Source: Longimicrobiales bacterium
GTDB lineage: Bacteria; Gemmatimonadota; Gemmatimonadetes; Longimicrobiales; Gaopeijiaceae
Direction of reading: 5' to 3'
Length of the DNA: 64,000 nucleotides
NCBI GenBank assembly: GCA_963422615.1
Contig: OY730414.1
Location: 1,346,302-1,410,301, forward strand
Shown here: in pieces, positions 1 through 18,486 of the stretch
Numbering within the stretch: the stretch's first letter is position 1
How the letters are laid out: each line of letters opens with the position of its first letter
Translations under genes and position numbers: made by a program
Notes under the pieces: model-generated
The model's input: the letters and a program-made list of their open reading frames with translations, nothing else
Told to the model about the DNA's origin: nothing
Databases searched by the model: none

Positions 1-2881
1 GCGAACTTCGGCCAGATGCTCGGCTACCACGTTCCCGGCCGCGTAAGCCTCCGCCTTGCCCTCGAGTTCCCGTTCGATCCAAGCACACTCCGGGCGGCCC
101 AGAATCTCATCCGAACGGGGTTCGTCCGCACGAAGCGGCCGCAGATCAAGGTAGGGAGCGTACCGCACATGTCCCCGCACCCCGCGGGGTCCGAGGTCAA
201 GGTAGATCATCCGCTTCGAGATCACCCGGTAGGCCCCGTTTCGTGTCGGACGCCCGTCGTGGATGGCATGCTCAAGGTAGAGAAGAACGTGTGGCTCCAG
301 CCCATGGTCCCGGTCGTCCACCAACACCGCGCCGCGCTTCAGAAGCATGCGGTTCTGTTCAAGGGTTAGGTCGAGCACGGCATCGAGAAGCGGGTGTCCG
401 GGACAAACGAAGGCCGCGCTAGGCCGTCCGGGTGGGGTGATGAGGGACTTCTCGAATGCAATGCGCTCGTAGCGGACCAGAACCGGCTCTCTGGCTCCCA
501 GTTCGGCGGCACGCCTTCGCACCACCGCGGGAACCCGGGAGATCTGATACCGCCGCGGCTCCCGCTCCCTGGCGGTGCCACCCAGGTGTTTGAAGGCCTC
601 CAGGAAGAACGACTCGATGAAGTGGGGCTGTAAGCGTCTTGCGTCGGCGCGTTCCATCTCCTCTCGGACCGCTTGCAACCGACGGGTGTCCATCGTGTCC
701 TGCGCCAGCGCGTCGGCGAGCATGAGCCCCCTGAGTCGGTCTCGGTCCAGGGCGTCGCTAACGACCGTGTCGAGATGGGCCCGGATCTCCGGTTGTTCCC
801 CAAAACGAATCGCTTTTACGAGCAGGTCCTGCAAAGATCGGCCCTCAAACTGGACCTGTCCAAGCACGTCGAACACCTGACCGCCCAACGCTTGGCGCTC
901 GGCCTCCAGCTTGTCCAGCAGGGTCTGATAGACCTTGCCCTCCCGGGTGTCCTGGGCGAGGAGATTCCAAAGGTGGCACACTTCGGTCTGGCCGATACGA
1001 TGGATGCGTCCGAAGCGCTGCTCCAGCCGGTTGGGATTCCACGGCAGATCGTAGTTTACCATCAGGTGGGCCCGCTGCAGGTTGATCCCTTCGCCTGCGG
1101 CGTCGGTGGCGACAAGCACCCTGACCTCGGGATCGTGGCGAAACGCCTCCTGGGCCTCAAGCCGATCGCGCCGGTTCAGTCCCCCATGAATCACAACCAC
1201 GGCCTCCGGCCGCCCGATCCACGTGGTGATCCGCTCCAGTAGGTAGCTGAGGGTGTCCTTGTGCTCGGTGAAAACGACAAGTTTCTGGTCCTGCGAGGGC
1301 TGTGGAGGCGGGACTTCCCCGGCTCCATAGTCGACCTCGGGCTCCTTGACCGGGGGGGCTAAACCCGAGGGGGCGAAGAGCTTGTCCAGGAGACCTGCCA
1401 GCTCCCGCCATTTCGTGTCGTCGCTTCGCTCCAGTACATTGCGGGCCAGACGCTCAAGGCTACGCAGAGTATCGATTTCCGCGCGCAGTTCGACTCTTGA
1501 CCGGGCGGCGGTTGCCTGGCCCAACACGTCGGCTTCCGCTGCCTCAACTTCGTCCTCGGGGGCGTCTTCCAAGCTCTCAAGGTCTTCCAGCTCCAACGCC
1601 CGACTTCCGAAGAAGGGAGAGGAGTCGGTGGTCTTGCCGTGGGGGAGCTCCTCCAGCCCCCGAAGTCGAGCCTGCAGGCGTTCACGGCGCCGTCCCAGGG
1701 AGCGGAAGATCGCCTGGGGCGAAGAGGCAAGACGACGTTGGAGGATCATCAACGCAAACCCGATGGTCGTCCGCTTCTTGCCGCCCAGCTTCTCTGCGCG
1801 ATCGAACTCCTGCTTCACGTACCGGGTAACCGCCTTGTACAGGATGGCCTCGGCCTCGGAGAGTCGGTAGGGAACGGTGTAGGCCCGGCGCATGGGAAAG
1901 AGCGGCGTACCGTCGAACTTCAGCAGCTTTTCCTTGACCATGCGGCGCATCAGGTCCGACGTATCGGAACGGTGAACGCCCGCGCGGAAGCGGCCCTCGA
2001 ACCGATCCCCGTCAAGGAGCGCCATGAAGAGCTGAAAATCGTCCTCCTTGCCGTTGTGGGGCGTGGCCGTCATGAGGAGGAAGTGGCGGGTGAGGCGACC
2101 AAGGAGCTGGCCCAACCGGTAGCGTTTCGTGTACTTGACCTTCCGGCCGGAATACGTCGCCGACATCTTGTGGGCTTCGTCACAGACCACGAGGTCCCAG
2201 CGGCAGTCGGGGGCCTGGAGCAGTTCTTGGACCTCCTCGTTGCGAGAGAGCATGTCGAGGCGCGCGATCACCAAGTCGTTCTTCTCGAACCAGTTGTCCG
2301 GGCGCGCCGCCAATCGCTCCTGGGGGGTATAGACGACAAAGGAAAGTTGGAAGCGGCGTTTCAGCTCCTCCTGCCACTGCTCGGCGAGGCTGCCGGGACA
2401 TACGACCAGACAGCGCTCGAGGTCGCTGCGGGCAATCAGCTCCTTCATGAGCAGCCCCGCCATGATCGTCTTGCCGCTGCCGGGATCGTCGGCGAGGAGG
2501 AAGCGGAGGGGCTGGCGGGGCAGCATGGATTCGTAAACGGCCGTGATCTGATGAGGCAGGGGTTCGACGAGTGAGGTGTGCACCGCCAGCAGGGGATCAA
2601 AGAGGTGGGCGAGGTGGATACGCTGGGCCTCGGAGACCAGCCTGAAGCGGGAGCCGTCAGCGTCGAAGGTCCAGGGACGGGCCTGGGAAGGGACTTCGAA
2701 GCGGTCCTCATCGATCCGGTGAACCACCTTAGGAGCCCGTCCCGCCCGATGCGATCCTGTAGGTGACCTGGATGACCTGGACACCCCGAGATCCCAGCCA
2801 CGTCGTGCCGACGACGGTGACCGGCCCGTCCGGGCGAATCCCTTCCACTTGGACGTGCGACTGAAGGTCTTCAAGCTTCAT
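1..2881 (-). CDS. SNF2/DEAH-box superfamily-2 helicase; C-terminus lies beyond window start; 5' end ambiguous (ATG at 2881 in one frame; GTG 2784 / TTG 2874 in the helicase-core frame)
   Basis: Minus-strand translation (frame with codon tops = 0 mod 3) is open from ~2880 to position 1. It contains Walker A LLADDPGSGKTIMAG, DEAH box LVVCDEAHKMSAT, motif III LLMTATPHNG, and a C-terminal helicase domain with DLPWNPNRLEQRFGRIHRIGQT (motif VI). The plus-strand ORFs 673-1242 and 1639-2574 are antisense artefacts. Confidence 0.85.
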
Positions 2882-3170
2882 GAGGCGATGGATCCGTTCT
2901 GACCCGGGAGGTCCCAAGGGCGGGCACGGTGGATAAGGGGGGGATGCGGAGAATTGACCGGATTCACCGCACCCATGAAGATAAAGCATGTGGGGGCCAG
3001 CCAACTTAAGTTCGCCCCGCCCTCGGACTCGGAGTATCTGCTATGAAGTCCTTCGGAGCATCATCCATCGTCAGGTCTTCCGCTTCGCGTTGGAACCCGA
3101 CGGAGGCCGGCGCTTTCGTGGCGGGCCTCACCCAGCCCCCGCTTCCAACCGCGACAGCAAGGGGCGTGCG

Positions 3171-6011
3171 GTGAGCAACATCCCCGGCGGGGATCGCCGA
3201 TGGCCGTACCCCGGCGCCCGTTGGTGGAAGTTCGACTTTCACACCCATACCCCGGCCTCGAACGACTACGGCAAGGGATCCGAGCAGGAGACCCTGCGAA
3301 ACGTTACACCGCGCGATTGGTTGCTCGGTTTTATGGGCGCCGAAGTGGATTGCGTAGCGGTGACGGACCACAACTCGGGGGAGTGGATCGACAAGCTCAA
3401 AGCGACCCTCGTGGAGATGGAGGAGGAGAACCATCCGGACTTTCGGCCCCTGTACTTATTCCCAGGCATGGAAATCACCGCCAACGGCGGCATCCATGTC
3501 CTTGCGATATTCGACCCCGGCAAAGGATCCGCGGATATTGCAACGCTGCTCGGAGCCGTTGGATATCGAGGCGACCGCGGTGCCAGTGACGAAGTGGCGG
3601 ATTCGGCGCCCAAAGGTGTCGTGAAAGCCATCGGCGAAGCCGGCGGAATCCCTATTCTCGCCCATGTGGATGGTCCGTCAGGCGCCTGGAAGTTGCCCGG
3701 CAATACCCTGACGCCGCTGTTCGATCTCGACGATCTTTTCGCGATGGAGGTGGTCGATCCTGCGAAAGAGAAACCCGAGCTGTATCGTCAACGCAAGCTC
3801 GCCTGGGCGGAAGTGCTTGGCTCCGACTCGCATCATCCCGGCGGACCGGCAGGGTCTCGTTTCCCCGGCTCGCACTACACCTGGATCAAGATGGCGGAAC
3901 CCTCGCTGGAAGGACTGCGCTTGGCCTTGCTGGACGGCGGAGGCTTCTCGGTCCGGCGCAGCGACGATCCGGAGCCTTTCAATCCCTTTGCGCTGCCCAC
4001 GCATCGCATCGAAGCCATCGAGATTGACGACGCGCGGTACATGGGGCGCGGTAAGCCGGCCAGTCTTGGGTTCAGCCCGTGGCTCAACGCCCTGGTGGGC
4101 GGGCGAGGCACAGGCAAGTCCACGGTCATCCATGCACTGCGGCTGGCGGCGAGACGCGAGAATGAATTGGCGAATCTGGAAGCACGCAGCGAGCCTCGTC
4201 TGACCTTCGAGCGATTCAATCGCGTGCCCTCGCATCGCACGGACGAGGGTGGCTTGCAGGGTTCGACGAAAATTCGGTGTACCATGATGCGCGACGGCGT
4301 TCGTCATCGCCTTCGCTGGCGGCAGGACGGCGTCGGCACGGTCGTGGAAGACGATGCGGGCAACGGCGATTGGAAACCCTCACTTGCTCAGACGGTGACG
4401 CCGGAGCGTTTTCCGGTCCGCATATTCAGCCAGGGACAGATCGCCGCCCTGGCCGGCGAGAACCAGCAGGCGCTGTTGCAGGTGATCGACGAGGCGGCCA
4501 AGACAAGCAGGCTGCATGAAGACCTCAAAGAGGCCCGAAAAGCATTCTTCGCATCAAGGACGCGGATCCGGGCGCTCGACGGCAAGCTGGGCCGATGGGA
4601 CGATCTCGTCGTGCAGCGACAGGATACGGAGCGCAAGTTGAAGCGTTTCCAGGATGCAGGACACTCCATGATCCTGACCGCTTACGGGCGCCGTCGCCGT
4701 CAGCGTACGGAAACGGATCGGCAGCTCGAGGCATCGGAGGAGATCGCCGATCGCATTGAAGCGCTGGCGGCAGGACTTGAAGCCGAAGACCTGCCTGATG
4801 GACTGTTCGACGAAGGATCGGAAGAAGATCGGCAAGCGGTTTCGATCATGGCAGCGCTGGCCGCCGGCGTGCGCATGGCAGCCCGGGACCTGCGTTACGC
4901 CGCCAAGCGCCTGCGAGGAATTGCCGAAGCACAGCGCAAGGAGTTGACCAATAGCATGTGGCAGTCAGCCGTGGAACAGGCGACGCAGGGCTACACTGCG
5001 TTGGTCGAGACGCTGCGCAGTGTAGGCATTACCGACCCGAACGAGTACGGCCGCTTGGTACAGGACCGGCAACGGCTCGATAGGGAATCGAAGGCTCTGG
5101 AGTCACTGCAGGCGGAACGGGATCGGCTGACGGAGCAATCCGGGGGACAACTGCGGAAGGTCCTGGAGGCCCGCCGCGCCATAAGCGCCGCCCGCGAGAA
5201 TTTCCTGTCCGGAACGCTCGCCCGGAACCGCTTCGTGCGCATCCGACTTCGGACCTACGGCGACGGTCCGCGAGTCATCGAACGTTCCTTGCGGGAGGCG
5301 TTGAGGATTCTTGACGACCGCTTCCGGGACGACATCCTCGTGATGGACGTGGATCGCCCGGCCAATGGGTGGGTTGCGGAACTTCTTGCAGACTTGCCGG
5401 AAGGTACAACAGAACGGTGCTCCGAGGTCGAAAGCCGCATCGAGCACCTCAAACAGCGAATCAGCCGGGCCTGTTCAGGCAGCGGTGATTTCGGCGGACG
5501 CCTCAACAACTATTTCCAGCGTGAATTCAACCGGCATCCCGAGCTGCTGGACAACATGCTGACCTGGTTTCCAGAAGACGGATTATGGGTCGAGTACAGC
5601 CGCCGGGGCGACGGCACGGACTTTCAGCCTATCAATCAAGCGTCGGCGGGTCAGCGGTCGGCGGCAATGCTGGCGTTTCTGCTTGCGCACGGCGAGGAGC
5701 CTCTGGTACTAGATCAGCCGGAAGACGATCTCGACAACCACTTGATCTACGACCTGGTCGTGCGCCAGATGCGGGAGAACAAGCTCAGGCGGCAGATCAT
5801 CGTGGTGACGCACAACCCGAACATCGTCGTGAACGGAGATGCCGAGATGCTGCATGCACTCGGTTTCCAGCGAGGCCAGTGTCGGGTCGTGCAGTCGGGA
5901 TCGTTGCAGGAAGAAACGATGCGCGAGGAAGTCTGCCGGGTGATGGAAGGTGGACGCGAAGCCTTCGAGCGCCGTTATCGTCGCTTGGGGCGGGAGCCGG
6001 CTCGTGTTTGA
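3171..6011 (+). CDS. PHP-domain phosphoesterase fused to SMC/Rad50-like ABC ATPase (Ppl-like defence protein); maximal ORF starts at ATG 2988
   Basis: PHP motifs WWKFDFHTHTPAS, AVTDHNS, PGMEIT, GSDSHHP. Walker A LVGGRGTGKST, Q-loop FSQGQ, signature-like QASAGQRS, Walker B LVLDQPEDDLD, H-loop VVTHNPN, with a ~300-aa helical insert between Walker A and signature (Rad50/SbcC-like). GTG 3171 is in frame and preceded by AAGGGG. The 61 aa upstream of it (from ATG 2988) are low-complexity. Confidence 0.8.
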   Translation: MSNIPGGDRRWPYPGARWWKFDFHTHTPASNDYGKGSEQETLRNVTPRDWLLGFMGAEVDCVAVTDHNSGEWIDKLKATLVEMEEENHPDFRPLYLFPGMEITANGGIHVLAIFDPGKGSADIATLLGAVGYRGDRGASDEVADSAPKGVVKAIGEAGGIPILAHVDGPSGAWKLPGNTLTPLFDLDDLFAMEVVDPAKEKPELYRQRKLAWAEVLGSDSHHPGGPAGSRFPGSHYTWIKMAEPSLEGLRLALLDGGGFSVRRSDDPEPFNPFALPTHRIEAIEIDDARYMGRGKPASLGFSPWLNALVGGRGTGKSTVIHALRLAARRENELANLEARSEPRLTFERFNRVPSHRTDEGGLQGSTKIRCTMMRDGVRHRLRWRQDGVGTVVEDDAGNGDWKPSLAQTVTPERFPVRIFSQGQIAALAGENQQALLQVIDEAAKTSRLHEDLKEARKAFFASRTRIRALDGKLGRWDDLVVQRQDTERKLKRFQDAGHSMILTAYGRRRRQRTETDRQLEASEEIADRIEALAAGLEAEDLPDGLFDEGSEEDRQAVSIMAALAAGVRMAARDLRYAAKRLRGIAEAQRKELTNSMWQSAVEQATQGYTALVETLRSVGITDPNEYGRLVQDRQRLDRESKALESLQAERDRLTEQSGGQLRKVLEARRAISAARENFLSGTLARNRFVRIRLRTYGDGPRVIERSLREALRILDDRFRDDILVMDVDRPANGWVAELLADLPEGTTERCSEVESRIEHLKQRISRACSGSGDFGGRLNNYFQREFNRHPELLDNMLTWFPEDGLWVEYSRRGDGTDFQPINQASAGQRSAAMLAFLLAHGEEPLVLDQPEDDLDNHLIYDLVVRQMRENKLRRQIIVVTHNPNIVVNGDAEMLHALGFQRGQCRVVQSGSLQEETMREEVCRVMEGGREAFERRYRRLGREPARV

Positions 6012-7281
6012 CAGCGTCGAGGAACTGCTCGACAAGATAAGACTCGGCGAAGACACGTTCCTGGAGTGCAAGGAAGTACGTTTTGCGGGACAGAAGGTCA
6101 GCGGCCCTCGCCGTGATTCGCTCGCGGACGAGCTCGCCGCCTTCGCCAACGGCCGAGGCGGTGTCTGCCTGCTGGGCGTGGAAGACGGCTCGCGTGAAAT
6201 CGTAGGCATCCCCGTTGACCGTCTCGATGTCGTGGAAGATTTCGTCCGTGAAGGTTGCAGCGATTCCGTGGATCCGCCTCTCGCGCCCGTGATCGAACGC
6301 ATCCAGCTACCTGCGACCACCGGGGAAGAGGTTGCGATCATCAAGATCGAGGTGAAACGCAGTCTGTTCGTACACCGCAGTCCGGGAGGCTATCTGCACC
6401 GGGTAGGCAGCGCCAAGCGCACCATGTCGTCCGAATACCTGGCCCGGCTGTTCCAGCAGCGCAGCCAGGCCCGGATGATCCGCTTCGACGAACAGGTTGT
6501 TCCCGACGCCAAGCCGGACGATCTGTCATCCGAGATCTGGAGGTCTTTTCGCACCCCGCTCACCAGGAATAAATCGGAAAGTCTGCTTGCAAAACTTCAT
6601 ATGGTGCGACCCGATATGGACGGTACGCCGAGGCCGACGGTGGCAGGTGTGCTCATGGCCTCTCCGGATGCCCGGAGATGGCTGCCCAATGCCTACATTC
6701 AGGCAGTCGCCTATCGCGGCACGACCGTCAGAGCCGATACCAGCGATCCCTACCAATTGGATGCCTCGGATATCTCCGGCCCATTGAACAATCAAGTGAT
6801 TCAAGCCTGCCAATTCGTGGCGAAGAACATGAAAGTGGCGGCATTCAAGCATCTAGGCCGCCTGGATCGACCACAGTTCGACATGGAGGCGGTGTTCGAG
6901 GCTGTAGTCAATGCCGTGGCCCACCGCGACTACTCGATCCATGGCTCGAAGATCAGGTTGAAGCTGTTCCGCAACCGTCTTGAAATCTACTCACCCGGTG
7001 CCATCTCCAACACGATGGGAGTGGAAGATCTGCCCCACCTGCAGGCCACTCGAAACGAGATCGTTACCAGTCTGCTCGCCAAGTGCCCCGTCCCGACGAA
7101 CGTACCGTGGCTGGAGACCGAGCGGCGCACCATGATGGACAGACGTGGCGATGGGGTGCCGGTGATCTTGAACAACAGCCTGGAACTGTCGGGGAGAGAA
7201 CCGGAGTATCGTTTGATCGGCGACGCCGAACTGCTGTTGACCATCTATGCGCCCCGAGATGCATCGGAGGAATTGACCTAG
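6004..7281 (+). CDS. AlbA_2 DNA-binding domain + HATPase_c_4 protein (divergent-AAA / Schlafen-like, often annotated RecG-like regulator)
   Basis: GTG 6004 overlaps the stop of the upstream gene (GTGTTTGA) with GGGAG 8 nt upstream. The N-domain VFDSVEELLDKIRLGEDTFLECKEV...ELAAFANGRGGVCLLGVEDG is typical of AlbA_2. The C-terminal region AVFEAVVNAVAHRDYS is typical of HATPase_c_4. The maximal ORF from ATG 5950 overlaps the upstream gene by 60 nt. Confidence 0.7.
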   Translation: MFDSVEELLDKIRLGEDTFLECKEVRFAGQKVSGPRRDSLADELAAFANGRGGVCLLGVEDGSREIVGIPVDRLDVVEDFVREGCSDSVDPPLAPVIERIQLPATTGEEVAIIKIEVKRSLFVHRSPGGYLHRVGSAKRTMSSEYLARLFQQRSQARMIRFDEQVVPDAKPDDLSSEIWRSFRTPLTRNKSESLLAKLHMVRPDMDGTPRPTVAGVLMASPDARRWLPNAYIQAVAYRGTTVRADTSDPYQLDASDISGPLNNQVIQACQFVAKNMKVAAFKHLGRLDRPQFDMEAVFEAVVNAVAHRDYSIHGSKIRLKLFRNRLEIYSPGAISNTMGVEDLPHLQATRNEIVTSLLAKCPVPTNVPWLETERRTMMDRRGDGVPVILNNSLELSGREPEYRLIGDAELLLTIYAPRDASEELT

Positions 7282-7329: not shown

Positions 7330-9615
7330 TCATGCCGCTTTTTGGTATGAGGACCCGTTCCGGTCGGTTCGAAGCTGGCCGCTCCTTCTCGGATGGATTC
7401 CGACGAAAAAGAACCAAGAGAACCGCTCGTAGCGAGTGTATATGGCCATGCCGGGGCCGATGGCGGCCTGGGCCAAGTCCACCGGCGCGATGCCGCCGGA
7501 CCGGAGGATGCGCAGGGCCGGGGGGAGTTCGGTACGGAGCGTTTCCAGGAACTCCCGGCGGGTGGCCAGGGGCAGGTCTTCGGCTCGCTTTCGGCAGGCC
7601 AGGACGATGCTGGAGGCGAGGGCGTTGGTGCCCATGCCCACCATCCGGTTGGTCAGCTCGGTCCGCATCGGCCAGGTGCCGTTTATGGCGAGTCCCGATT
7701 CGATGACGGCGCCCAGGAAGGTCTCCCAGCCCGTGGAGGCGGTTCCGGATTTTCTTCTTGTTTCGGACTGCTTGAAGGCGTAGTAGATGGTGACCGGGAA
7801 CCCCGGGTGGGCCTGCTCCGCAAGCCGCTCGAGAGCCCGGGTCATTCCGCTCAGGAAGAAGCGTTCCGCCGCCTGTTTGCTGCCGTGTCGGTAGGGCGTG
7901 GCGACCAGCTCATCGGCCTTGGGCACAGCAAGCGTGGCGAACAGGTCCGGGAACATCGGCCGCAGGGAGCGGCGCAGCCAGACGTAGAAGAAGTCCGACA
8001 GGTCCGCGTAGCCGATGTTGTCGTAATAGGGCGGGTCGGTGGAGATGACTTCGGGACCGGCCGCCGCCTGGCTCGTTGCGTCAATCTGTGTCGCCATGCC
8101 GGCTGGGCCGCGAGGAAACGCGCCCAGGGCCTTTGCCGCCAATGCGATCTGGCCGGTCCAGTTGCCGCTTGATCCGGAAAATGGGTTGGCTTCCGCAAAA
8201 TCCCACATCATCGGAATAGCCTGCCTGCCAAACGTGTTTCGAATTGCCTCTCCCGGGACATTCCAGCTACAGATGCTTGACCAGTGGTTGGCACACTTGT
8301 CGACTGCGAACGCCAGATACAGGGACACCGCCTGGGCATAGGCCGTCGCGCCCCTGCCACCGTCGCGCAGCGGCTTGCCGTCGTCAGGGAAGCCGGTGGC
8401 GACAGCGTCTCGGCGGATCCGCTCTCGCGCTTCCCCCACCAGATCGGAAAAGGTCGTCAGGGCAACCAGCTGGCGGGGCGTGAAGAGGTCGGCGAAAGCG
8501 GGAAGACCGTAGTTGGGAGTCTTGAAGTCTCGCGGATTGTCGGGCAACGGTATGTCCGGCTTCCAAGTCGGATTCGCTTGGCGAGCGATCGTCTCATGCT
8601 CCGCCGACGGTGACAGATACACCCTTCCCCGAACTCCCGCCGCCACCACTGCCATCAACCGCGCACTCATGCGCCCAGCTTTGCCTTCCCCTCGAATGTG
8701 CTCGTACGGCAGACCCACTCCTGACATGAGGCAGCGAAACGCGCGTCGTTTGCCGGCTGATGTCCCCCGTTTCGCCGCGTCCACATCCGGCGGCGTTCCC
8801 ACCTTCACCGTGAACCGGTATCCCTTCCCCTCGATCACCGGCTCGACGTACGCCTCCTTCCCCTTCTTCGTCGACAGCATCCACGTCGACGCCAGCGGCA
8901 CCTCCACATCCCCATACGCAGGGTTCGGACTCTTCACCGTCCGCGCCCACAACCACGCGATCACCGTCAGCTTCCGCCCCGCATACGGCTTCAGGTCCGG
9001 CCGCTCCCGCACCATCTCCGGCGTCACCTCGACCGGCGGATACAAATGCCCGATCCGCTTCGCCGCCTCCTCCCGCATCCAACCCCCGTACCGCCGCACG
9101 TCCTCCGCCAACCCCTGCGCCCCGGACCACGTCTTCTCAACCAGCGTCGCGTCCGCGCGCGCCTCCGAGTTCACCGGCCCCCGACCCGCAAACCTCGGCG
9201 GTACCTCGATCATCGCCTTGCAGATCAGCACCGCTACCGGATTCAGATCGCTCGCGTGCGACTCCAGCCCCAGCCGCTGTGCCTCCAACGGCAGCGCCCC
9301 ACCCCCCGCAAATGGATCGTGAAAAGCAGGCAACTTCTCGGAATCAAACAACTCCCTGGCCCTGGGATGATCCCCGTTCTCGGCACACGCCCGCCCCCAA
9401 CTCCGCCAGATCTCACTCCTAGCCTCTTCAAGCACCCTCTCGTTGTTCGTGTTCTCCCACCTCACCAACTCCTCAATCATCCGAAACAACCGCCCCCGCT
9501 CACGCCCTGCGGCGATCTTCCGCAGGAAACTCCCTCTCGTCTTCGCCGGCTTCATCCACCATCTGGCGTCACCTTGACCGGGCGGCGGCCAGCGGACGAT
9601 CCGTGCCCACCACAA
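7330..9615 (-). pseudogene. DUF1156-family N6-adenine DNA methyltransferase, partial inverted copy A (N-terminal domain decayed at 9620-9750; C-terminus truncated at repeat boundary ~7426)
   Basis: 761-aa ORF with MTase motif I DPFAGGG and motif [23 protein letters not shown]. It lacks the DUF1156 N-terminal [15 protein letters not shown] segment. Only a decayed remnant with a stop (RKKLIEV..., [16 protein letters not shown]) survives at 9620-9750. It diverges from copy B after ...AIYTRYE and so lacks the ~190-aa conserved C-terminus. Confidence 0.7.
7426..9590. repeat. Left arm of ~2.15-kb inverted repeat (DUF1156 gene body)
   Basis: Six-frame ORFs 8513-9322(+) and 12536-13345(-) are identical over 269 aa, and 8594-9130(-) equals 12728-13264(+) over 178 aa. 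9046-9675(+) and 11976-12812(-) are identical for ~150 aa. The outer part 7426-8500 matches 13350-14431 with scattered substitutions and indels. Confidence 0.9.
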
Positions 9616-10067
9616 GTGGAGTGTGCTCGGATGCCCAGTGCCGGATCGACTTCTCTCGCTTTGACGCCGCGTTGATCTACGACCTAGCGGAAGCCCGAGA
9701 CCTCAATCAGCTTCTTGCGTATCTGAACGGTAGTCACCTATGATGTTCACCCAGATGGATGGCCTTGAGATGCGGCCGGCCCGACGCAACATCGCATGGA
9801 ACTACGACTAGGCCCCATTCTGGCTTGGCCACTGGGAAGTGCGCAATCCTGGTTCATTTCGGGTAGAGCAGTGCGCATTCCCGGGGGCATGAGCGTCTGG
9901 CGGCGCCGTCGGCCGTCCTTGCCGATCTCCTCCACCGCTACAGGGCGGAGCAGATAAGGCGCCTCTGGTATTTCCGGATCGGATTCTTCCGCCTTGGATC
10001 ACACCGGGCGACGCGTTATGGGGTTCCGGACCTCCCGATTCCCCCTGCCCTCCAGAGGAGAAGTACG

Positions 10068-10970
10068 ATGTCCAATGGTTCCCTTGAAGGAAGGAAAGCC
10101 AACCGTAAGCCGGTGCTTTTGGAAACTGCTGGCCAAGAGGTATTCACCCGGCATGGGCAGCGTCTGGAAACCCAGCACGTTAACTGTAAACCGCCGGATA
10201 TCTTCAGGCAACATCAGATTCGGGCCCTCGGACCTTTCGCGGCCGACCCATTGAACGAGATCACGAGAGGAGAGGTTCGGCAGTGGTTCGGAACGCTGCA
10301 CCGAACACCGGCCGCGGGCAATCGCTCCCTTCCCGTTCTTTCCGTAATCTTGAGGGAGGCCGAGGCCTATGGATACCGGTCGGCCGAAAGCAATCCCTGT
10401 CGTCCACTTCGGCGGTACCGGGAGGTTGGGCGCAAGCGCTTTCTCAATGCGACAGAGATAAGGCGCCTAGGCAGAGTGCTTGCCGACCGACGGACCGCAT
10501 GGCCCCTTCAGGCGACACTTGTTCGTCTATTGCTGCTCACCGGCTGTCGGCAGAGCGAAGTGCGAACGCTCGAGTGGCACAACTATCGCGACGGACACCT
10601 ACATTTGCGCGACAGCAAAACGGGTCCACGGACGATTTGGCTGTCGTCAGCTGCACGGCGGGAACTGGGGGAACTGTCCCGAACGGGGCGCTTCGTGTTC
10701 CCTGCGCCGGATGGTGCAAGTCCCATGCCGACGGAAACGCTCTACCGCGCCTGGCGGCACCTGCGCCATGACGCGGGAATGCCCGGACTCCGGCTGCATG
10801 ACCTCCGGCACACGTACGCGAGTCTGGCCCTGCGTCGTGGGGAGACGGTGGTCGTGATCGGTCGGCTGCTGGGACACCGGGATCCGAACACCACACTCAA
10901 GTATACGCACTTTGGCTCGACGATCCTGCAGGAGGCCGCAGAAATCGTTACCCAAGCCTTGAAAGGGTGA
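10068..10970 (+). CDS. Tyrosine recombinase / phage-integrase family (XerC/D-like), intact
   Basis: Box I LLLTGCRQSEV, HDLRHTYASLA, and LLGHRDPNTTLKYTH with the catalytic Tyr. A GAGGAG RBS lies 7 nt upstream of the ATG. Confidence 0.85.
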   Translation: MSNGSLEGRKANRKPVLLETAGQEVFTRHGQRLETQHVNCKPPDIFRQHQIRALGPFAADPLNEITRGEVRQWFGTLHRTPAAGNRSLPVLSVILREAEAYGYRSAESNPCRPLRRYREVGRKRFLNATEIRRLGRVLADRRTAWPLQATLVRLLLLTGCRQSEVRTLEWHNYRDGHLHLRDSKTGPRTIWLSSAARRELGELSRTGRFVFPAPDGASPMPTETLYRAWRHLRHDAGMPGLRLHDLRHTYASLALRRGETVVVIGRLLGHRDPNTTLKYTHFGSTILQEAAEIVTQALKG

Positions 10971-10974
10971 CGCC

Positions 10975-11899
10975 ATGGCTCCGAACTTTGCCCGATTCGT
11001 TACGAACCCCTGGAGAACCGCCTGCTACAACCGATGCAAGCCTTCGACCCGAAAGCGCATGGACAGCGCGCTTCGCACCCAGCTTCTTCCCGTCTTTGGA
11101 TCTTTGCGTCTGGACGAAATCAACCGGGTGGCCGTGCTCCGGTGGTTCGACGGATACAGCCGAACCGCGCCGGCGGGTGCGAACCGTACCCTGGACATCC
11201 TGCGGCAGATCCTCAACTACGGCATCGAGTGTGGCCATTTGGAATCGAACCCGGCCTGCGGTGTAAAACGCAATCCCAGGCCGAAGGTCACTCGTTTTCT
11301 CTCGAAAGACGAAGTGGCCCGTGTCCACGCAACCATTGACGCCCACCGGGGCCGCGGCTCCCGGTCGCCAAGCAAGCCGACATCATTCGCCTGTTGCTGT
11401 GGACGGATGCCGCAAGGGCGAAATCCTGAATCTGCAGTGGAAGGAAGTGGACGGCAGCGTACTGCGTTTGACCGACAGCAAGACGGGACCCAGAACCGTC
11501 CTTCTTGAGCAAGGAGGCGCAAGCCGTACTTGGCCGCCAGCCGCCTAGCGAAGGTCCCTACGTCTTCCCATCCCTTCTTGATCGTCGCGTCCCGTTCAAG
11601 CGAGCTTTCCCTATGGCGAAAGGTCCGACGCGAAGCCCGAATCCAAGATGTTCGGCGGTGCACACCTCCGGCATACGTTCGCCAGCTACGCCGCCCATGT
11701 GCCGGTGAATCCCGCTGGCCCGTCGTTTGCAGAAAGCTCGGCTTACGGTTGGCCGCCTTCCTTCATGGCCCTACGCTATATTCACATTGATGATCGGGGG
11801 CCAAAGAAGCCGCAGAGCGGATTGGCAGGGACATCGCCGAGCTACTGGACCCGAATGCGGAAGAATCGCGATTCCGGAACGCATCAACAAGGCGCCTAG
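10975..11899 (+). pseudogene. Second tyrosine recombinase (paralog of 10068-10970) disrupted by at least 3 frameshifts
   Basis: The N-domain (VLRWFDGYSRTAPAGANRTLDILRQILNYG) is in ORF 10975-11508. Box I CRKGEILNLQW...LTDSKTGPRTVLL is in the frame of 11321-11548. GPYVFPS is in 11505-11708. HLRHTFASYAA is in 11648-11899. Confidence 0.75.
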
Positions 11900-11961
11900 G
11901 CTCCGCGCCTGTATCTGTCGGTGACCCAAGGTAGATCGGCAAGGACGTCGACGAGCCGACG

Positions 11962-14900
11962 GTGGCGCCAGACGCTCATACCCACCCCTGCTTAAACGAA
12001 ATGAACCAGGATAAATCACCCGGTGAAAACACGCAAGAAGCTGATCGAAGTCGCACTGCCCAGTGGATTCCAATCAATGTAGCGGGGGCGCTAGAGAAGT
12101 CGATTCGGCACGGGCACCCGTCAACGTTGCACCTGTGGTGGTCACGCAAGCCACTGGCCGTAGCCCGGGCGGTAATTTTCGCCCAGGTCGTAGATGACCC
12201 GTCCGAGTACGTCAACGCGTTACTGTCGGACCCGGTGACGCTTCGGGAAGCCCAACGGATACTCGTCCGCAGCGCCGAACGGTCAAGGGACGCCAGGCGG
12301 CGTATGCAAGCCGGGAAGACGAGAGGGAGGCCCTGCGGGAGATCGCCGCCGAGCGTGAGCGGGGGCGGTTGTTTCGGATGATTGAGGAGTTGGTGAGGTG
12401 GGAGAACACGAACAACGAGAGGGTGCTTGAAGAGGCTAGGAGTGAGATCTGGCGGAGTTGGGGGCGGGCGTGTGCCGAGAACGGGGATCATCCCAGGGCC
12501 AGGGAGTTGTTTGATTCCGAGAAGTTGCCTGCTTTTCACGATCCATTTGCGGGGGGTGGGGCGCTGCCGTTGGAGGCACAGCGGCTGGGGCTGGAGTCGC
12601 ACGCGAGCGATCTGAATCCGGTAGCGGTGCTGATCTGCAAGGCGATGATCGAGGTACCGCCGAGGTTTGCGGGTCGGGGGCCGGTGAACTCGGAGGCGCG
12701 CGCGGACGCGACGCTGGTTGAGAAGACGTGGTCCGGGGCGCAGGGGTTGGCGGAGGACGTGCGGCGGTACGGGGGTTGGATGCGGGAGGAGGCGGCGAAG
12801 CGGATCGGGCATTTGTATCCGCCGGTCGAGGTGACGCCGGAGATGGTGCGGGAGCGGCCGGACCTGAAGCCGTATGCGGGGCGGAAGCTGACGGTGATCG
12901 CGTGGTTGTGGGCGCGGACGGTGAAGAGTCCGAACCCTGCGTATGGGGATGTGGAGGTGCCGCTGGCGTCGACGTGGATGCTGTCGACGAAGAAGGGGAA
13001 GGAGGCGTACGTCGAGCCGGTGATCGAGGGGAAGGGATACCGGTTCACGGTGAAGGTGGGAACGCCGCCGGATGTGGACGCGGCGAAACGGGGGACATCA
13101 GCCGGCAAACGACGCGCGTTTCGCTGCCTCATGTCAGGAGTGGGTCTGCCGTACGAGCACATTCGAGGGGAAGGCAAAGCTGGGCGCATGAGTGCGCGGT
13201 TGATGGCAGTGGTGGCGGCGGGAGTTCGGGGAAGGGTGTATCTGTCACCGTCGGCGGAGCATGAGACGATCGCTCGCCAAGCGAATCCGACTTGGAAGCC
13301 GGACATACCGTTGCCCGACAATCCGCGAGACTTCAAGACTCCCAACTACGGTCTTCCCGCTTTCGCCGACCTCTTCACGCCCCGCCAGCTGGTTGCCCTG
13401 ACGACCTTTTCCGATCTGGTGGGGGAAGCGCGAGAGCGGATCCGCCGAGACGCTGTCGCCACCGGCTTCCCTGACGACGGCAAGCCGCTGCGCGACGGTG
13501 GCAGGGGCGCGACGGCCTATGCCCAGGCGGTGTCCCTGTATCTGGCGTTCGCATTGACAAGTGTGCGGATCACTGGTCAAGCATCTGTTCGTGGGATGTC
13601 GGGCTACGTCAAGATTCGAAACACGTTTGGCAGGCAGGCTATTCCGATGATGTGGGATTTTGCGGAAGCCAACCCATTTTCCGGATCGAGCGGCAACTGG
13701 ACCGGCCAGGTCGCATGGGTCGCAAAGGCCCTGGGCGCGTTCCCTCGCGGCCCAGCCGGCATGGCGACACAGATTGACGCAACGAGCCAGGCGGCGGCCG
13801 GTCCCGAAGTCATCTCCACCGACCCACCCTACTACGACAACATCGGCTACGCGGACCTGTCGGACTTCTTCTACGTCTGGCTGCGCCGCTCCCTGCGGCC
13901 GATGTTCCCGACCTGTTCGCCACGCTTGCTGTGCCCAAGGCCGATGAGCTGGTCGCCACGCCCTACCGCCACGGCAGCAAACAGGCGGCGGAGCGCTTCT
14001 TCCTGAGCGGAATGACCCGGGCGCTGGCTCGACTTGCGGAGCAATCCCACCCGGCCTTCCCGGTTACCATCTACTACGCCTTCAAGCAGTCCGAAACAAG
14101 AAGAAAATCCGGAACCGCCTCCACGGGCTGGGAGACCTTCCTGGGCGCCGTCATCGAATCGGGACTCGCCATAAACGGCACCTGGCCGATGCGGACCGAG
14201 CTGACCAACCGGATGGTGGGCATGGGCACCAACGCCCTCGCCTCCAGCATCGTCCTGGCCTGCCGAAAGCGAGCCGAAGACCTGCCCCTGGCGACCCGCC
14301 GGGAGTTCCTGGAGACCCTCCGCACCGAACTCCCCCCGGCCCTGCGCATCCTCCGGTCCGGCGGCATCGCACCGGTGGACTTGGCCCAGGCCGCCATCGG
14401 CCCCGGCATGGCCATATACACTCGCTACGAGAAGGTGCTCGACGCCAGTGGGAAGCCGATGACGGTTCGCGAAGCCCTGGCGCTCATCAACCAGATCCTC
14501 GACGAGTCGCTGGCGGAGCAGGAAGGGGAATTCGACCGAGCCACCCGCTGGGCACTTGCCTGGTTCGAGGAACACGGCTTCGAGGAAGGAGATTTCGGCG
14601 GGGCCGAAACGCTTTCGAAAGCCAAGAACACCAGTATCGCCGGACTGGTAAAAGTCGGCATCCTGGCGTCCCGTGCCGGCCGAGTCCGTCTGCTGCGCCC
14701 TTCCGAGTTGCCCGACGACTGGGACCCGTCTGCTACCGACCCGCCGACCGTCTGGGAAGTGGTTCACCAGCTCATCCGAGCGCTGGAAAGCGAGGGCGAA
14801 ATGGCTGCGGCAAAACTTGTCGAACGCCTAGGCAGCGTCATCGGTAACGCCCGTGACCTCGCGTACCGCCTCTACTCCATCTCAGACCGAAAGAAGAGGG

Positions 14901-15001
14901 CCGCGGAAGCCCTGCAGTACAACGGCTTGGCCGGGAGCTGGACCGAGATCAAGAACCAGGCCGCAAAAGCTCAGCAGACCGAATTCGAGATGGATTCGTG
15001 A
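11962..15001 (+). pseudogene. DUF1156-family N6-adenine DNA methyltransferase copy B; complete N- and C-termini but frameshifted near 12060, 13560-13620 (two compensating indels) and ~13905
   Basis: ORFs 11962-12381 ([46 protein letters not shown]), 12369-14006 and 13931-15001 together cover the full DUF1156 length including the conserved C-terminus (...YNGLAGSWTEIKN). Relative to copy A, a 1-nt deletion (cccggacctg to cccgacctg) shifts the frame after [13 protein letters not shown]. Confidence 0.7.
12310..14431. repeat. Right arm of the ~2.15-kb inverted repeat
   Basis: Reverse complement of 7426-9590; the central >1 kb is 100% identical. Confidence 0.9.
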
Positions 15002-15156
15002 ACAGTACTGCCCGCAACCGCCCAAACGGTCGGGCTGGCAAGACTTGTCAGCCTGATGGATGAGGGCGCGTTCACCGAGCTTTCAGGCGATACTTGACGG
15101 CATTGACCGCCTTGGCTCGTCCCCTTCACCCGCCAACCAAGACTGACTGACCCAAT

Positions 15157-18100
15157 ATGGCTCTAACCAATCATGAACGCGTCGGGAAGGCGATGGCGCT
15201 TCTCCGCGCCGGCCTGGCCCCCTTCGTCGAGCGCGAAATCAAGGCCGCCCACCCCCCTGCCGTCACCCCGGCCCGCGAGGCCTACCGGTACCTGAACGAC
15301 CGCAAGATCACGGCCGAGCCGATCCCGGAGTGGGACGTCCACGCGTTGCTTCGGCTCATGTGGGAGGCATGGAACCGAGTCTTCGGGAAGACGCTGGGCA
15401 GCGCCGAGCGCAACTACGTTTCCGAACTCCGCGCCGCCCGGAATGCTTGGGCCCACCAGCGGAGCTTCACCAGTGACGACGCCCACCGCGCCCTTGATTC
15501 CACATACCGGCTGCTGACCTCGATCTCGGCGCCTCAGGCTGCGGACGTTGAGAAGATGAAGATGGAGCTCCTCCGGCTTCGCTTCAATGAACAGGCCCGC
15601 CACGTGCGGCGCCAGGGTGCTCAGACGGCGCTCAAGATCGGGGCCACGTCTTCCTTGCCCGCCTGGCGGGACGTGGTGTCGCCCCACCCGGATGTCCAGC
15701 GCGGCGACTACAAGCAGGCCGAGTTCGCGGCCGACCTCTGGCAGGTCTACAAGAACGACGCCTCGGACGAATACCGTGATCCGGCCGAGTTCTTCCGGCG
15801 CACCTACCTGACCGAGAGCTTGCGCGCCATGCTGGTGGGCGCGGTGACGCGGCTCACCTCGGGCCGGGGTGACCCGGTCATTCAGCTCCAGACCAACTTC
15901 GGCGGAGGCAAGACCCACTCTATGCTCGCCCTGTACCACCTGTTTTCGGGTACCCCGCCCACGCGTCTGGCTGGGGTGGACGCGCTCATGGGGGAAGCCC
16001 GGGTCGATGGACTTCCACGGGTTCGCCGGGTCGTCCTGGTCGGCACCAAGATCTCGCCCGCCAGTCCCCAAAAAAAGCCGGACGGCACGGTCGTTCGCAC
16101 CCTGTGGGGAGAACTCGCCTGGCAGCTGGGCGGCCGGGATGCCTACCGTAGGATCGCCGACGACGACGAGAAGGGCACCAGTCCGGGCGATGCCCTCCGG
16201 GGCCTGTTCAACGACTTCGGGCCGTGCGTGGTGCTCATTGACGAATGGGTGGCCTACGCCCGGCAGCTTCACGATCGCAGCGACCTTCCCGCCGGCAGCT
16301 TCGAGACGCAGTTCACGTTTGCCCAGACGCTGACCGAATCCGTAAAGGCCGCGTCCAACTGCCTGCTCGTGATCAGCCTTCCTGCATCCGATGCGGCGCC
16401 CTCTCCCCAGACGCAGGCGGACGACGTCGAAGTCGGCGGAGTTCGCGGCCGGGAAGCGCTGGACCGGCTGAGCAACGTCGTGGGCCGGCTGGAGTCCGCC
16501 TGGCATCCCGCGAGCGCGGAGGAGGGCTTCGCGATCGTCCGGCGACGCCTCTTCACGTCCATGGACGATGAGGGCCAAAAGCAGCGCGACGTCGTTGCGA
16601 GGACATTCTTCGACTTCTACCGAAGGCAACAACAGGAATTCCCGGTCGAGTGCCGCGACTCCGACTACGAGCGCCGGCTGAAGGAGGCGTACCCGATCCA
16701 CCCCGAGGTCTTCGATCGGCTCTACGAGGACTGGTCCACGCTTCTGAGATTCCAGCGCACGCGCGGCGTTTTGCGCCTGATGGCCACCATCATCCACAGC
16801 CTCTGGGAGAAGGGGGACCGGAGTCCTTTGATCCTCCCGTCCCTGGTGCCGATCGACGACCGGCGGGTCCGCTCCGAGCTCACGAGCTACCTGCCGGACC
16901 GATGGGTGCCGATCATCGAGTCGGACGTGGACGGCCCCAACTCCCTTCCGCTTCGTATAGACAAGCAGTACAGCAACCTGGGCAAACTGACCGCCTGTCG
17001 CCGCGTGGCCCGGACGGTGTACTTGGGCTCCGCGCCGCTGAAGGATGCGGCCAAGAAGGGCATGGACGACCGCCGCGTGAAGCTGGGTTGCGTGTTGCCC
17101 GGGGAGTCGGCCGCGATCTTCGGGGACGCGCTGCGTCGGCTGGCCGGGGAAGCGACGTACCTGTACCAGGACGGCCCCCGCGTCTGGTATGACACACAAC
17201 CCACCGTGACCAAGCTCGCGCGGGACCGGGCCGCGCAGCTGGAAGGCGCTCCCGCCAGGGTTTCCGAGGAGATCAAGCGCCGCGTGCAGGCGGATGCCAG
17301 CCGAAACCGAGGGGACTTCCACGGCGTCCACTGCTTCCCCCGGGAGGCGGCGGATGTTCCCGACCACCCCAGTGTCCGTTTGGTGATCCTGGGCGTAGAC
17401 GAGAGCTACATCAAGAGTGGCGAAAGCCCCGCCGAAGCTCGGGCCCGGGAACTGCTGGAGTCCCGAGGGACTGCTCCCCGTCTCTGCCGCAACGCGGTCG
17501 TGTTCCTGGCGCCCGACAAGACCCGGTTCCAGGATCTTGCGGCAACGGTCCGGATGTACCTCGCGTGGCAATCGATCGTCGCCGAAAAAGAATCCCTGAA
17601 CCTCGACCCCTTCCAGCTTAGGCAGGCCGAGAGCCGTCTTGACGACCAGGATGGCAGGGTGAAGGGCCAGATCCCGGAGGTCTTCCAGTGGCTTCTGGTG
17701 CCAGGTCAGGTCAAGCCCGAGTCCCCGGTAGAGTGGAAGGCGGTTCGCCTGACGGGACCGGGTGAGTTGGTGGTTCGGGCGAGCGCAAAGCTGAGGCGGG
17801 AGGACATGCTGGTCGACTGTTACGCGGGCACCCTTCTCAAGCTGGATCTCGACCGTATTCCTCTGTGGCAGGATCATGTGGAGGTACGGCAGCTGGCAGA
17901 CCACTATTCGAAGTACACCTACCTCCAGCGGGTCGGAGATCCTTCGGTCATCGCCAATGCCGTGCGGGAGGGAGTCGGCCTGTTGACCTGGGAGAACGAC
18001 ACGTTTGCCTACGCTGAGGGTTACGACGAAGAGAAGGGGCGGTACCTGGGGCTTAGGGCGGGGACCCATCTGCCGCCTTTGAGCCCGGAGGACAGGGGAT

Positions 18101-18486
18101 TGGTGGTCCGTTCCGCGATTGCTCGGGAGCAGCTGGACAAAGAGGTCGTGGGTCCGCCCCCGCCCCCCGAGAACGGCGTCGATACGGATTCCCGGCCACC
18201 ATCCTCCCCGGACGACAGTGAAGGGCCGTCCCTCCCTCCCCCCCTCCGGCCAAAGAAGCGCTTCTACGGGAACGTGGCCGTCGACCCGGTCCGGTCCGCA
18301 GGGGCCGTAGGACAGATTGCAGAGGAGGTGGTGTCGCATCTGGTTGCCTTGGTTGGCGCAAAAGTGGATGTGACCCTGGAGATCGAGGCCAAGATCCCGG
18401 ATGGCGCGCCGGAGCACGTCGTGCGGACTGTCACCGAGAATGCCCGAACGTTGGGATTCGGGAGTTTCGATTTCGAGGAGGAATAG
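15157..18486 (+). CDS. DUF499-family P-loop ATPase with N-terminal Swt1-like HEPN domain (partner of the DUF1156 methyltransferase)
   Basis: HEPN Rx4H motif LRAARNAWAHQ near the N-terminus. P-loop QTNFGGGKTHSMLALYHL and Walker B CVVLIDEWVAY. 1109-aa ORF. The antisense 1084-aa ORF 15163-18417 is a GC artefact. Confidence 0.85.
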   Translation: MALTNHERVGKAMALLRAGLAPFVEREIKAAHPPAVTPAREAYRYLNDRKITAEPIPEWDVHALLRLMWEAWNRVFGKTLGSAERNYVSELRAARNAWAHQRSFTSDDAHRALDSTYRLLTSISAPQAADVEKMKMELLRLRFNEQARHVRRQGAQTALKIGATSSLPAWRDVVSPHPDVQRGDYKQAEFAADLWQVYKNDASDEYRDPAEFFRRTYLTESLRAMLVGAVTRLTSGRGDPVIQLQTNFGGGKTHSMLALYHLFSGTPPTRLAGVDALMGEARVDGLPRVRRVVLVGTKISPASPQKKPDGTVVRTLWGELAWQLGGRDAYRRIADDDEKGTSPGDALRGLFNDFGPCVVLIDEWVAYARQLHDRSDLPAGSFETQFTFAQTLTESVKAASNCLLVISLPASDAAPSPQTQADDVEVGGVRGREALDRLSNVVGRLESAWHPASAEEGFAIVRRRLFTSMDDEGQKQRDVVARTFFDFYRRQQQEFPVECRDSDYERRLKEAYPIHPEVFDRLYEDWSTLLRFQRTRGVLRLMATIIHSLWEKGDRSPLILPSLVPIDDRRVRSELTSYLPDRWVPIIESDVDGPNSLPLRIDKQYSNLGKLTACRRVARTVYLGSAPLKDAAKKGMDDRRVKLGCVLPGESAAIFGDALRRLAGEATYLYQDGPRVWYDTQPTVTKLARDRAAQLEGAPARVSEEIKRRVQADASRNRGDFHGVHCFPREAADVPDHPSVRLVILGVDESYIKSGESPAEARARELLESRGTAPRLCRNAVVFLAPDKTRFQDLAATVRMYLAWQSIVAEKESLNLDPFQLRQAESRLDDQDGRVKGQIPEVFQWLLVPGQVKPESPVEWKAVRLTGPGELVVRASAKLRREDMLVDCYAGTLLKLDLDRIPLWQDHVEVRQLADHYSKYTYLQRVGDPSVIANAVREGVGLLTWENDTFAYAEGYDEEKGRYLGLRAGTHLPPLSPEDRGLVVRSAIAREQLDKEVVGPPPPPENGVDTDSRPPSSPDDSEGPSLPPPLRPKKRFYGNVAVDPVRSAGAVGQIAEEVVSHLVALVGAKVDVTLEIEAKIPDGAPEHVVRTVTENARTLGFGSFDFEEE

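Follow-up and report, generated by a model that had tools for sequence, protein, structure and literature searches.

Programmed DNA inversion is known for several components of bacterial defence systems, including PglX of type 1 bacteriophage exclusion (BREX) in Lacticaseibacillus rhamnosus GG, DrmMI of the defence island system associated with restriction–modification (DISARM), Type IIG enzymes and hsdS (Milman et al., NAR 2023, PMC9881135). Nested inversions swap an internal part of PglX, and both orientations have been found in long-read data (PMC9881135). Here, we discuss a stretch of 64,000 nucleotides (nt; “the window”) from a Longimicrobiales bacterium (Gemmatimonadota; assembly GCA_963422615.1, contig OY730414.1, positions 1,346,302 to 1,410,301 of the forward strand), in which two inverted copies of the DUF1156 methyltransferase gene hmaB flank a pair of tyrosine recombinase genes, int1 and int2. 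Based on sequence comparison, this region is likely an Hma anti-phage locus (DUF1156 methyltransferase/DUF499 ATPase/SNF2 helicase) with a built-in inversion module, of which the window would carry a collapsed instance. The inversion of defence methyltransferases is already known; for the Hma/DUF1156 target, no earlier description was found.

Type I hsdS shufflons—e.g., SpnD39III/CreX of Streptococcus pneumoniae or the hsd loci of Mycoplasma pulmonis—resemble the Hma module in that their inverted repeats lie within coding sequence, partial cassettes are silent, a tyrosine recombinase is encoded locally, and the variable parts are target-recognition modules. However, in the shufflons the variable protein is a separate, small specificity subunit with two target recognition domains (TRDs), while the Hma cassettes lie inside a methyltransferase of ~1000 aa, and the Hma repeat blocks are hundreds rather than tens of nucleotides long. 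The Hma system itself is reportedly due to Payne et al. in 2021. It has also been named DUF499-centred BREX-related systems (PMC12839542) and, as in Halomonas meridiana (PMC11232893), comprises the SNF2 helicase HmaA, the DUF1156 protein HmaB and HmaC, a fusion of DUF499 with a HEPN domain, with Ppl-type insertions. This composition is found in the window as well, where HmaA is represented by its N-terminal part; the canonical operon, however, has a single hmaB. Recombinases, a duplicated hmaB or inversion are not mentioned in the Hma/BREX-related papers PMC11232893 and PMC12839542, and no literature linking DUF1156/HmaB to inversion or recombinases was found in the library searched. The view of the first-pass annotation that inversion switching had not been described for a DUF1156/DUF499 module agrees with our search, which found no paper on DUF1156/Hma inversion.

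With PglX, DrmMI and the Type IIG enzymes (PMC9881135), the Hma module has in common a defence N6-adenine methyltransferase as the target, a partial inverted copy thereof and an adjacent tyrosine recombinase; it additionally shares with them several repeat blocks that allow nested inversions, swapping an internal part while the termini stay constant. Unlike in those systems, the target is the DUF1156 protein HmaB of a DUF499/SNF2 system, which is not listed there, there are always two paired paralogous recombinases, and the cassettes in the window are homogenised. The Hma module is distinctive in its obligate recombinase pair, its three-block/two-cassette design and its wide spread across phyla.

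Evidence for inversion comes from relatives of the window. Two of the related loci come from the ends of a single 4.10-Mb circular metagenome contig: L003 comprises its initial 20.5 kb in reversed orientation and L004 its final 20 kb. Their centres are colinear, but the flanks are swapped, either flank of one locus aligning in reverse with the opposite one of the other; both the centres and the swapped flanks are 100% identical. The contig, hence, has a 15.3-kb terminal overlap with the ~8-kb centre inverted, as expected of an assembler confronted with both orientations in the sampled population. When the four hmaB arms are aligned, the N-terminal halves are 100% identical within sides (L3left = L4left, L3right = L4right) and the distal parts are 100% identical across sides (L3left = L4right, L3right = L4left). 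One of the arms, L4right (L004 16589-17722), is in comparison with L004 7565-8647 and L003 16589-17704 a fine-scale mosaic of two real alleles, switching every 5–15 nt and containing inserted bases, which is a consensus artefact arising where orientations are mixed. The second case is the pair L014 and L086, in which the flanks (hmaB C-terminus, hmaC) are colinear and the ~4-kb centre is reversed at 88% identity. At the level of the assembled contigs, the middle segment, thus, exists in both orientations in relatives. The invertible centre of L003/L004 also holds two tandem genes for AAA_22/AAA_16 ATPases of ~529 aa (11767-13466 and 13629-15328), which are 90.7% identical to each other and present neither in the window nor in L001.

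To assess the conservation of the module, an alignment of the recombinase served as the query against one genome per species, yielding 80 loci; given that this sample was taken from the recombinase side, it does not imply a frequency among all HmaB genes. The int1-int2 pair occurs in 80 of the 80 loci, with exactly two recombinases at each of them, and ~30 loci carry hmaB beside the pair, in two inverted copies wherever the flank is long enough. Counting L001, L003/L004, L086 and L087, the order hmaB-int1-int2-inverted hmaB is found in ~33 independent loci, mostly from metagenome-assembled genomes (MAGs); the first-pass annotation had proposed searching other genomes for just such an inverted DUF1156 duplicate with an embedded recombinase. 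Labels of the module-bearing loci include Acidobacteriota, Gemmatimonadota/Longimicrobiales, Vicinamibacteria, Bryobacterales, Thermoanaerobaculia, Binatia, Spirochaetia, and Alpha- and Gammaproteobacteria. Many of the MAG bin names resemble those of sponge and coral symbiont bins. A search from the HmaB side, in which L086 and L087 likewise showed the module, revealed that two short HmaB proteins, P0133 (862 aa) and P0232 (793 aa), also adjoin a recombinase pair. The earlier proposal of a recombinase-driven invertible cassette is, therefore, strongly supported for the family by the ~33 loci, by their conserved repeat blocks around two variable cassettes and by the two inversions; its specifics for the window fail, as detailed below.

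The closest relative, L001 (ENA ERZ21742408), is 88–93% identical to the window and has intact open reading frames (ORFs) throughout: hmaA (−), hmaB of 800 aa (−), int1 of 296 aa (+), int2 of 302 aa (+) and an inverted hmaB of at least 851 aa (+). Of the two hmaB copies at a locus, one is complete; the other invariably lacks its C-terminal end from a common point onwards, matching no more than residues 1 to ~170 of the C-terminal query. Most pairs flank the recombinases head-to-head; three loci (L021, L033 and L046) have a tail-to-tail pair next to the recombinases. HmaA and hmaC are not found at fixed positions across the loci. Usually, the two hmaB copies stand at the start of separate, divergent arms, of which one continues to hmaC and the other often to hmaA. 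L086 additionally contains a second hmaB copy of 1011 aa, hmaC and hmaA. Insertions of 1.7–3.4 kb interrupt one hmaB copy or int2 in L008 (13960-15739), L022 (13549-15238), L046 (12802-15067) and L040 (11541-14982). On a separate 16-kb contig (L088), two full-length DUF1156 genes, 2152-5256 (+, 1034 aa) and 11305-14184 (−, 959 aa), are convergent; the 6 kb that separate them contain AAA_21 ATPase genes, and no recombinase is visible on that contig.

In the residue numbering of L001 HmaB, the repeats within loci make up three blocks whose boundaries are consistent, namely N (residues ~7-300/325), M (~413-480) and C (~563-770). These are separated by two variable segments, V1 (~300-413) and V2 (~480-563), which have no nucleotide homology between copies; repeat blocks bounding variable segments are seen in ~25 related loci. 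Within a pair, protein identity amounts to 0.40–0.62 in V1 and to 0.31–0.36 in the variable parts of V2, matching the background between unrelated family members (V1 0.36–0.60, V2 0.25–0.30), while within-pair identity in the blocks exceeds the between-locus background. In some loci, one cassette is homogenised (V2 in L001, L033 and L017; V1 in L040 and L061). Motif I (FAGGG) and motif IV (DPPY) of the L001 protein are found near residues 141 and 566, respectively. For DUF1156 methyltransferases, a TRD insert of ~250 residues has been described after core strand 2 (PMC12839542, 2026); according to sequence positions, V1 corresponds to the second half of the stretch so described, and V2 lies between that stretch and DPPY. 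A sequence search of the PDB with full-length HmaB gave no match.

On this basis, the following mechanism may be proposed. The complete hmaB linked to hmaC would be the expressed gene and the C-terminally truncated hmaB the cassette donor. Blocks N (here taken as residues ~7-320), M and C would serve as inverted recombination substrates, and inversion between matching blocks would flip the intervening DNA, thereby moving V1 and/or V2 between donor and expressed gene. We infer that V1 and V2 set specificity, so that inversion would change methylation as well as defence specificity, and that int1 and int2 catalyse the inversion, possibly as a heteromer. In the window, gene conversion has rendered V1 identical and V2 nearly identical between the copies.

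The inverted repeat of the DUF1156 methyltransferase gene around the recombinases, which had been noticed at first pass, is confirmed in the window by repeat search, blastn and PADLOC (HmaB). Its limits had been given as 7426-9590 and 12310-14431; here, the left arm (A) spans 7426 to 9599 and the right arm (B) 12263 to 14431. The arms, both hmaB and head-to-head, are ~2.17 kb each; over 2178 alignment columns, they differ by 48 mismatches and 11 gap openings, an identity of 97.2% (A read from 9599 to 7426; blastn). The repeat search further revealed a perfect core of 1222 nt (8305-9526/12332-13553). An identical stretch of >1 kb had been correctly noted, but not its place; base-by-base alignment locates it in the inner, recombinase-proximal portion of each arm instead of the middle. 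Outward of the core, a 1-nt indel (8304/13554) is followed by a divergent patch of ~50 nt and then by ~97% identity; inward, identity drops to ~80% and then ~60%, still being recognisable up to ~9917/11950. The arms are the sole long repeat in the window. A palindromic or hairpin assembly chimera was rejected as their origin, in view of the unique 2.7-kb spacer and the differences between the arms. A short inverted element (9880-9935/11930-11985; 34 nt at 88% inside a wider, weakly similar stretch) is present upstream of the two hmaB starts; it might act as a promoter or leader common to both copies, or as a region bound by a recombinase. Short inverted spacer matches, termed I6 and I7, had hinted at the recombinases being inverted duplicates of each other; this was rejected, as both genes are on the + strand. 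I6 reflects N-terminal hmaB homology that has diverged, and chance probably accounts for I7 (38 nt, 76%).

Copy A of hmaB (7330-9737, −) is of the truncated type and is detected by PADLOC as HmaB with E=0 over profile positions 77-782 of 967. Its open ORF (9615-7330) encodes 761 aa, and the ancestral start was a GTG at 9737; frameshifts and a ~115-nt deletion disrupt the stretch for the N-terminal DUF1156 part (9737-9530). Copy A is without the final ~190 aa that are present in copy B (14441-14998); this truncation is a conserved feature, since relatives carry the same one. Copy B (12023-15001, +), which is of the full type with the C-terminal domain, consists of two ORF pieces, 12369-14006 (PADLOC HmaB 1e-242) and 13931-15001 (4e-152), jointly covering profile positions 87-960. 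Its ancestral GTG start is at 12023; the reading frame shifts at 12060-12072 and once more at 12267, ~18 codons are out of frame owing to a −1/+1 pair (13554 and ~13607), and a further −1 at ~13910 is a change in homopolymer length from CCCC to CCC. Both ancestral frames hit stops after 17–19 codons. Pfam DUF1156 matches neither hmaB ORF as called, because the domain sits in the frameshifted stretch; it is recognisable in the frameshifted translation only, and is intact in L001 and L004 (Pfam 1e-31). The DPPY motif and motif I are present in the window copies.

Compared with the two L001 alleles, the window is a mosaic: the N-termini of its copies are A-like and B-like, respectively, V1 matches L001-B in part and neither allele in another part, and copy A has B-type linker sequence beside its ~115-nt deletion. 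As far as the alignments indicate, these are footprints of gene conversion. The identity gradient along the arms had been taken as a sign of ongoing conversion or inversion; of this, gene conversion stands, and consensus blending possibly contributed, too. Other expectations for the window did not hold: both copies, not copy B alone, keep N-terminal DUF1156 coding sequence, in each case broken, and the central segment regarded as the intact contribution of copy A is identical in both. As sequenced, no single or double crossover gives an intact full-length hmaB, because the N-terminus of copy B is frameshifted at 12060-12072 and 12267.

The recombinase pair lies between the two copies. Int1 (10068-10970, +) is a Xer-like tyrosine recombinase (Pfam Phage_integrase 4e-17) with an open ORF of 300 aa, in which the catalytic residues all align; R161, K184, H244, R247, H270 and Y279 occupy invariant alignment columns. 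It belongs to a large family of ~296-aa proteins and is 89% identical to P0001, the int1 product of L001; residues ~29-63 are scrambled by eight small insertions (net +12 nt) relative to the L001 gene. Int2 (10975-11889, +), the second tyrosine recombinase, is split into at least four ORF pieces by >15 indels and is intact in L001 (302 aa). The reading of one intact and one decayed recombinase is accurate for the catalytic residues of int1 and for int2, but not for the scrambled stretch of int1; a site-specific recombinase is encoded at the locus, with int2 present in frameshifted form. The two proteins are 39.6% identical, and their best NCBIfam similarities are XerA/XerC/XerD, all far under the cut-offs. 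Like XerC/XerD, they are paralogous Xer-like recombinases of ~300 aa encoded side by side and always co-occurring; unlike these, they are not orthologues of XerC/XerD, and the reaction they would catalyse is intragenic inversion, not dimer resolution. A scan of Joint Genome Institute metagenomes with int1 of L001 returned a single irrelevant match (27%), and exact-sequence look-ups with the window's int1 and HmaC proteins returned no record. Three tandem tyrosine recombinases, terminal inverted repeats and several identical copies per genome characterise recombinase-in-trio elements. Such an element was rejected for the window, where there are only two recombinases in a single copy and the flanking repeats are hmaB coding sequence.

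The surrounding genes are those of an Hma locus, with hmaC directly after copy B and hmaA past copy A. Of hmaA (1-2727, −), encoding the SNF2-family helicase, the window contains the N-terminal 909 residues, as the gene runs past the window start; residues 1-909 match HmaA of L001 at 98% in one high-scoring segment pair (tblastn). HmaA of L001 has SNF2-rel_dom, Helicase_C and NOV_C domains, and the part encoding NOV_C lies outside the window. An ORF on the + strand (1639-2574, 311 aa) is antisense inside hmaA, has no family match and is almost certainly an antisense artefact and not a gene. HmaC (15157-18486, +; PADLOC HmaC E=0) is intact with 1109 aa and is a DUF499 ATPase with an N-terminal Swt1-like HEPN domain (Pfam HEPN_Swt1 2e-32, DUF499 2e-27). 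Between hmaA and copy A, and outside the switch module, lies cargo (2949-7236, +), consisting of a Ppl-type ATPase gene (2988-6011, +; PADLOC Ppl E=1e-130) and a gene for a protein with AlbA_2/Schlafen and HATPase_c_4 domains (5950-7281, +; Pfam SLFN_AlbA_2, HATPase_c_4). This segment is missing in L001 (7137 joins 7210) and is found at the equivalent position in L003 at ~72% nucleotide identity, which, on sequence grounds, makes it recurrent cargo within hma loci. It fits reports of other defence genes inserted inside hma regions (PMC11232893).

Several points weigh against an inversion module at this locus. The arms in the window form one single block (residues 46-769, 97.2%), with V1 being identical and V2 differing by the ~50-nt patch and single-nucleotide polymorphisms; variable segments bounded by repeats, through which inversion alters the product, were not found in the window. 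Both variable cassettes being homogenised, inversion would leave specificity unchanged. In addition, frameshifts affect int2, copy B and the N-termini of the two hmaB copies as sequenced, and RecA-dependent recombination between repeats of 1–2 kb could invert the segment without int1/int2. With regard to the family, the exact crossover point in L003/L004 is uncertain, because the arms include chimeric consensus, and the recombinase pair also exists as a multi-copy unit of 2.4 kb with no hmaB nearby. We still favour an Hma locus with an inversion module, of which the window appears to be a collapsed, probably inactive or mis-assembled member; the frameshifts in int2, the hmaB N-termini and copy B together with the indel-dominated differences from L001 mean that this locus is either decayed or a blended consensus.

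Assembly is a serious contender as the cause of these defects, if one we rate as somewhat less than probable. The core, small indels and frameshifts would then be the consensus of a mixed population (two orientations and/or two strains), with the true genes being intact and the arms more divergent. This is in line with the L003/L004 locus, which was assembled twice in one contig with the L4right arm as a fine mosaic with insertion noise, as well as with the insertion-dominated noise of the window being confined to the switch region while long ORFs elsewhere are intact, and with the homopolymer change at 13910. However, the inverted repeat itself, for which the first-pass annotation had considered an artefactual origin, recurs in >25 independent assemblies and is, therefore, real. 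Going by the sequence differences, the ~115-nt deletion of copy A and the core edges with their many substitutions seem to be real, whereas the indel clusters look technical.

It is possible, though rather doubtful, that the locus is a static relic, in which an old inverted hmaB duplication and dead integrases decay with occasional RecA-mediated gene conversion and no programmed switching occurs here. The broken int2, the scrambled N-terminal domain of int1, the early stops of both hmaB frames, at least four frame disruptions in copy B and the deletion in copy A would all fit, as would the homogenised cassettes, which leave nothing to switch. Against this stands an architecture that is intact and conserved in L001 and ~30 further loci. 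Furthermore, in the spacer the differences between window and L001 are dominated by indels, with 4 substitutions versus 9 indels in 9950-10260 and 11 versus 22 in 11350-11900; hmaA has 102 substitutions versus 8 indels, and 10260-11350 has zero indels. Such an indel-heavy pattern looks technical and not evolutionary. A relic in this instance can be accepted without contradicting a switch at the level of the family.

The remaining alternative concerns the recombinase pair itself. In 50 of the 80 loci, mostly alphaproteobacterial MAGs, the pair occurs without hmaB as units of ~2.4 kb, composed of a ~400-nt leader, int1, a gap of ~280 nt (~5–50 nt in Hma loci) and int2, with several diverged copies per genome at 75–83% identity (e.g., L024 9620-12008 compared with L032 9584-11974). 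These units, noted among L020, L024, L026, L027, L030, L032, L036-L039 and L041-L084, look like a two-recombinase mobile element. In a midpoint-rooted neighbour-joining tree of int1, the 50 hmaB-free loci form one pure clade nested among Hma-associated lineages, suggesting, as far as this tree goes, a single escape, or a single capture, of the pair. The idea that int1-int2 is a transposable or integrative unit targeting hmaB, with the inverted copies as a by-product of insertion instead of a switch, takes its appeal from these 50 loci and is very unlikely, given that they form a single derived clade inside the Hma-associated lineages, that paired hmaB copies differ in V1 and V2 as much as random family members do and are, thus, not recent duplicates, that block boundaries are conserved across phyla with both head-to-head and tail-to-tail arrangements, and that the flank swaps are reciprocal inversions, not insertions. 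Tentatively, and at a confidence not quite reaching an even call, the inversion module may define a widespread Hma subclass in at least six phyla, in which a dedicated heteromeric pair of Xer-like invertases would use three intragenic repeat blocks to shuffle two cassettes of the target-recognition region between an expressed and a truncated hmaB, to give up to four specificities, and from which the pair would have escaped once to become the 2.4-kb alphaproteobacterial unit.

Switch loci of this kind corrupt long-read assemblies, as seen in chimeric consensus and duplicated contig ends, which calls for caution in MAG curation and, given such corruption, against reading the frameshifts in the window as decay. 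Hma/BREX-related systems, including HmaB with its role and specificity, are poorly understood; when HmaB was overexpressed in the Halomonas study, T4 infectivity did not change (PMC11232893). Cassette swapping would mark those parts of HmaB that evolve as exchangeable units and are, hence, candidate specificity determinants, and it offers a natural allelic series for methylome mapping. The programmed inversion of defence methyltransferases would, in this way, be extended to a further system as well as to bacteria that are uncultured and possibly host-associated.

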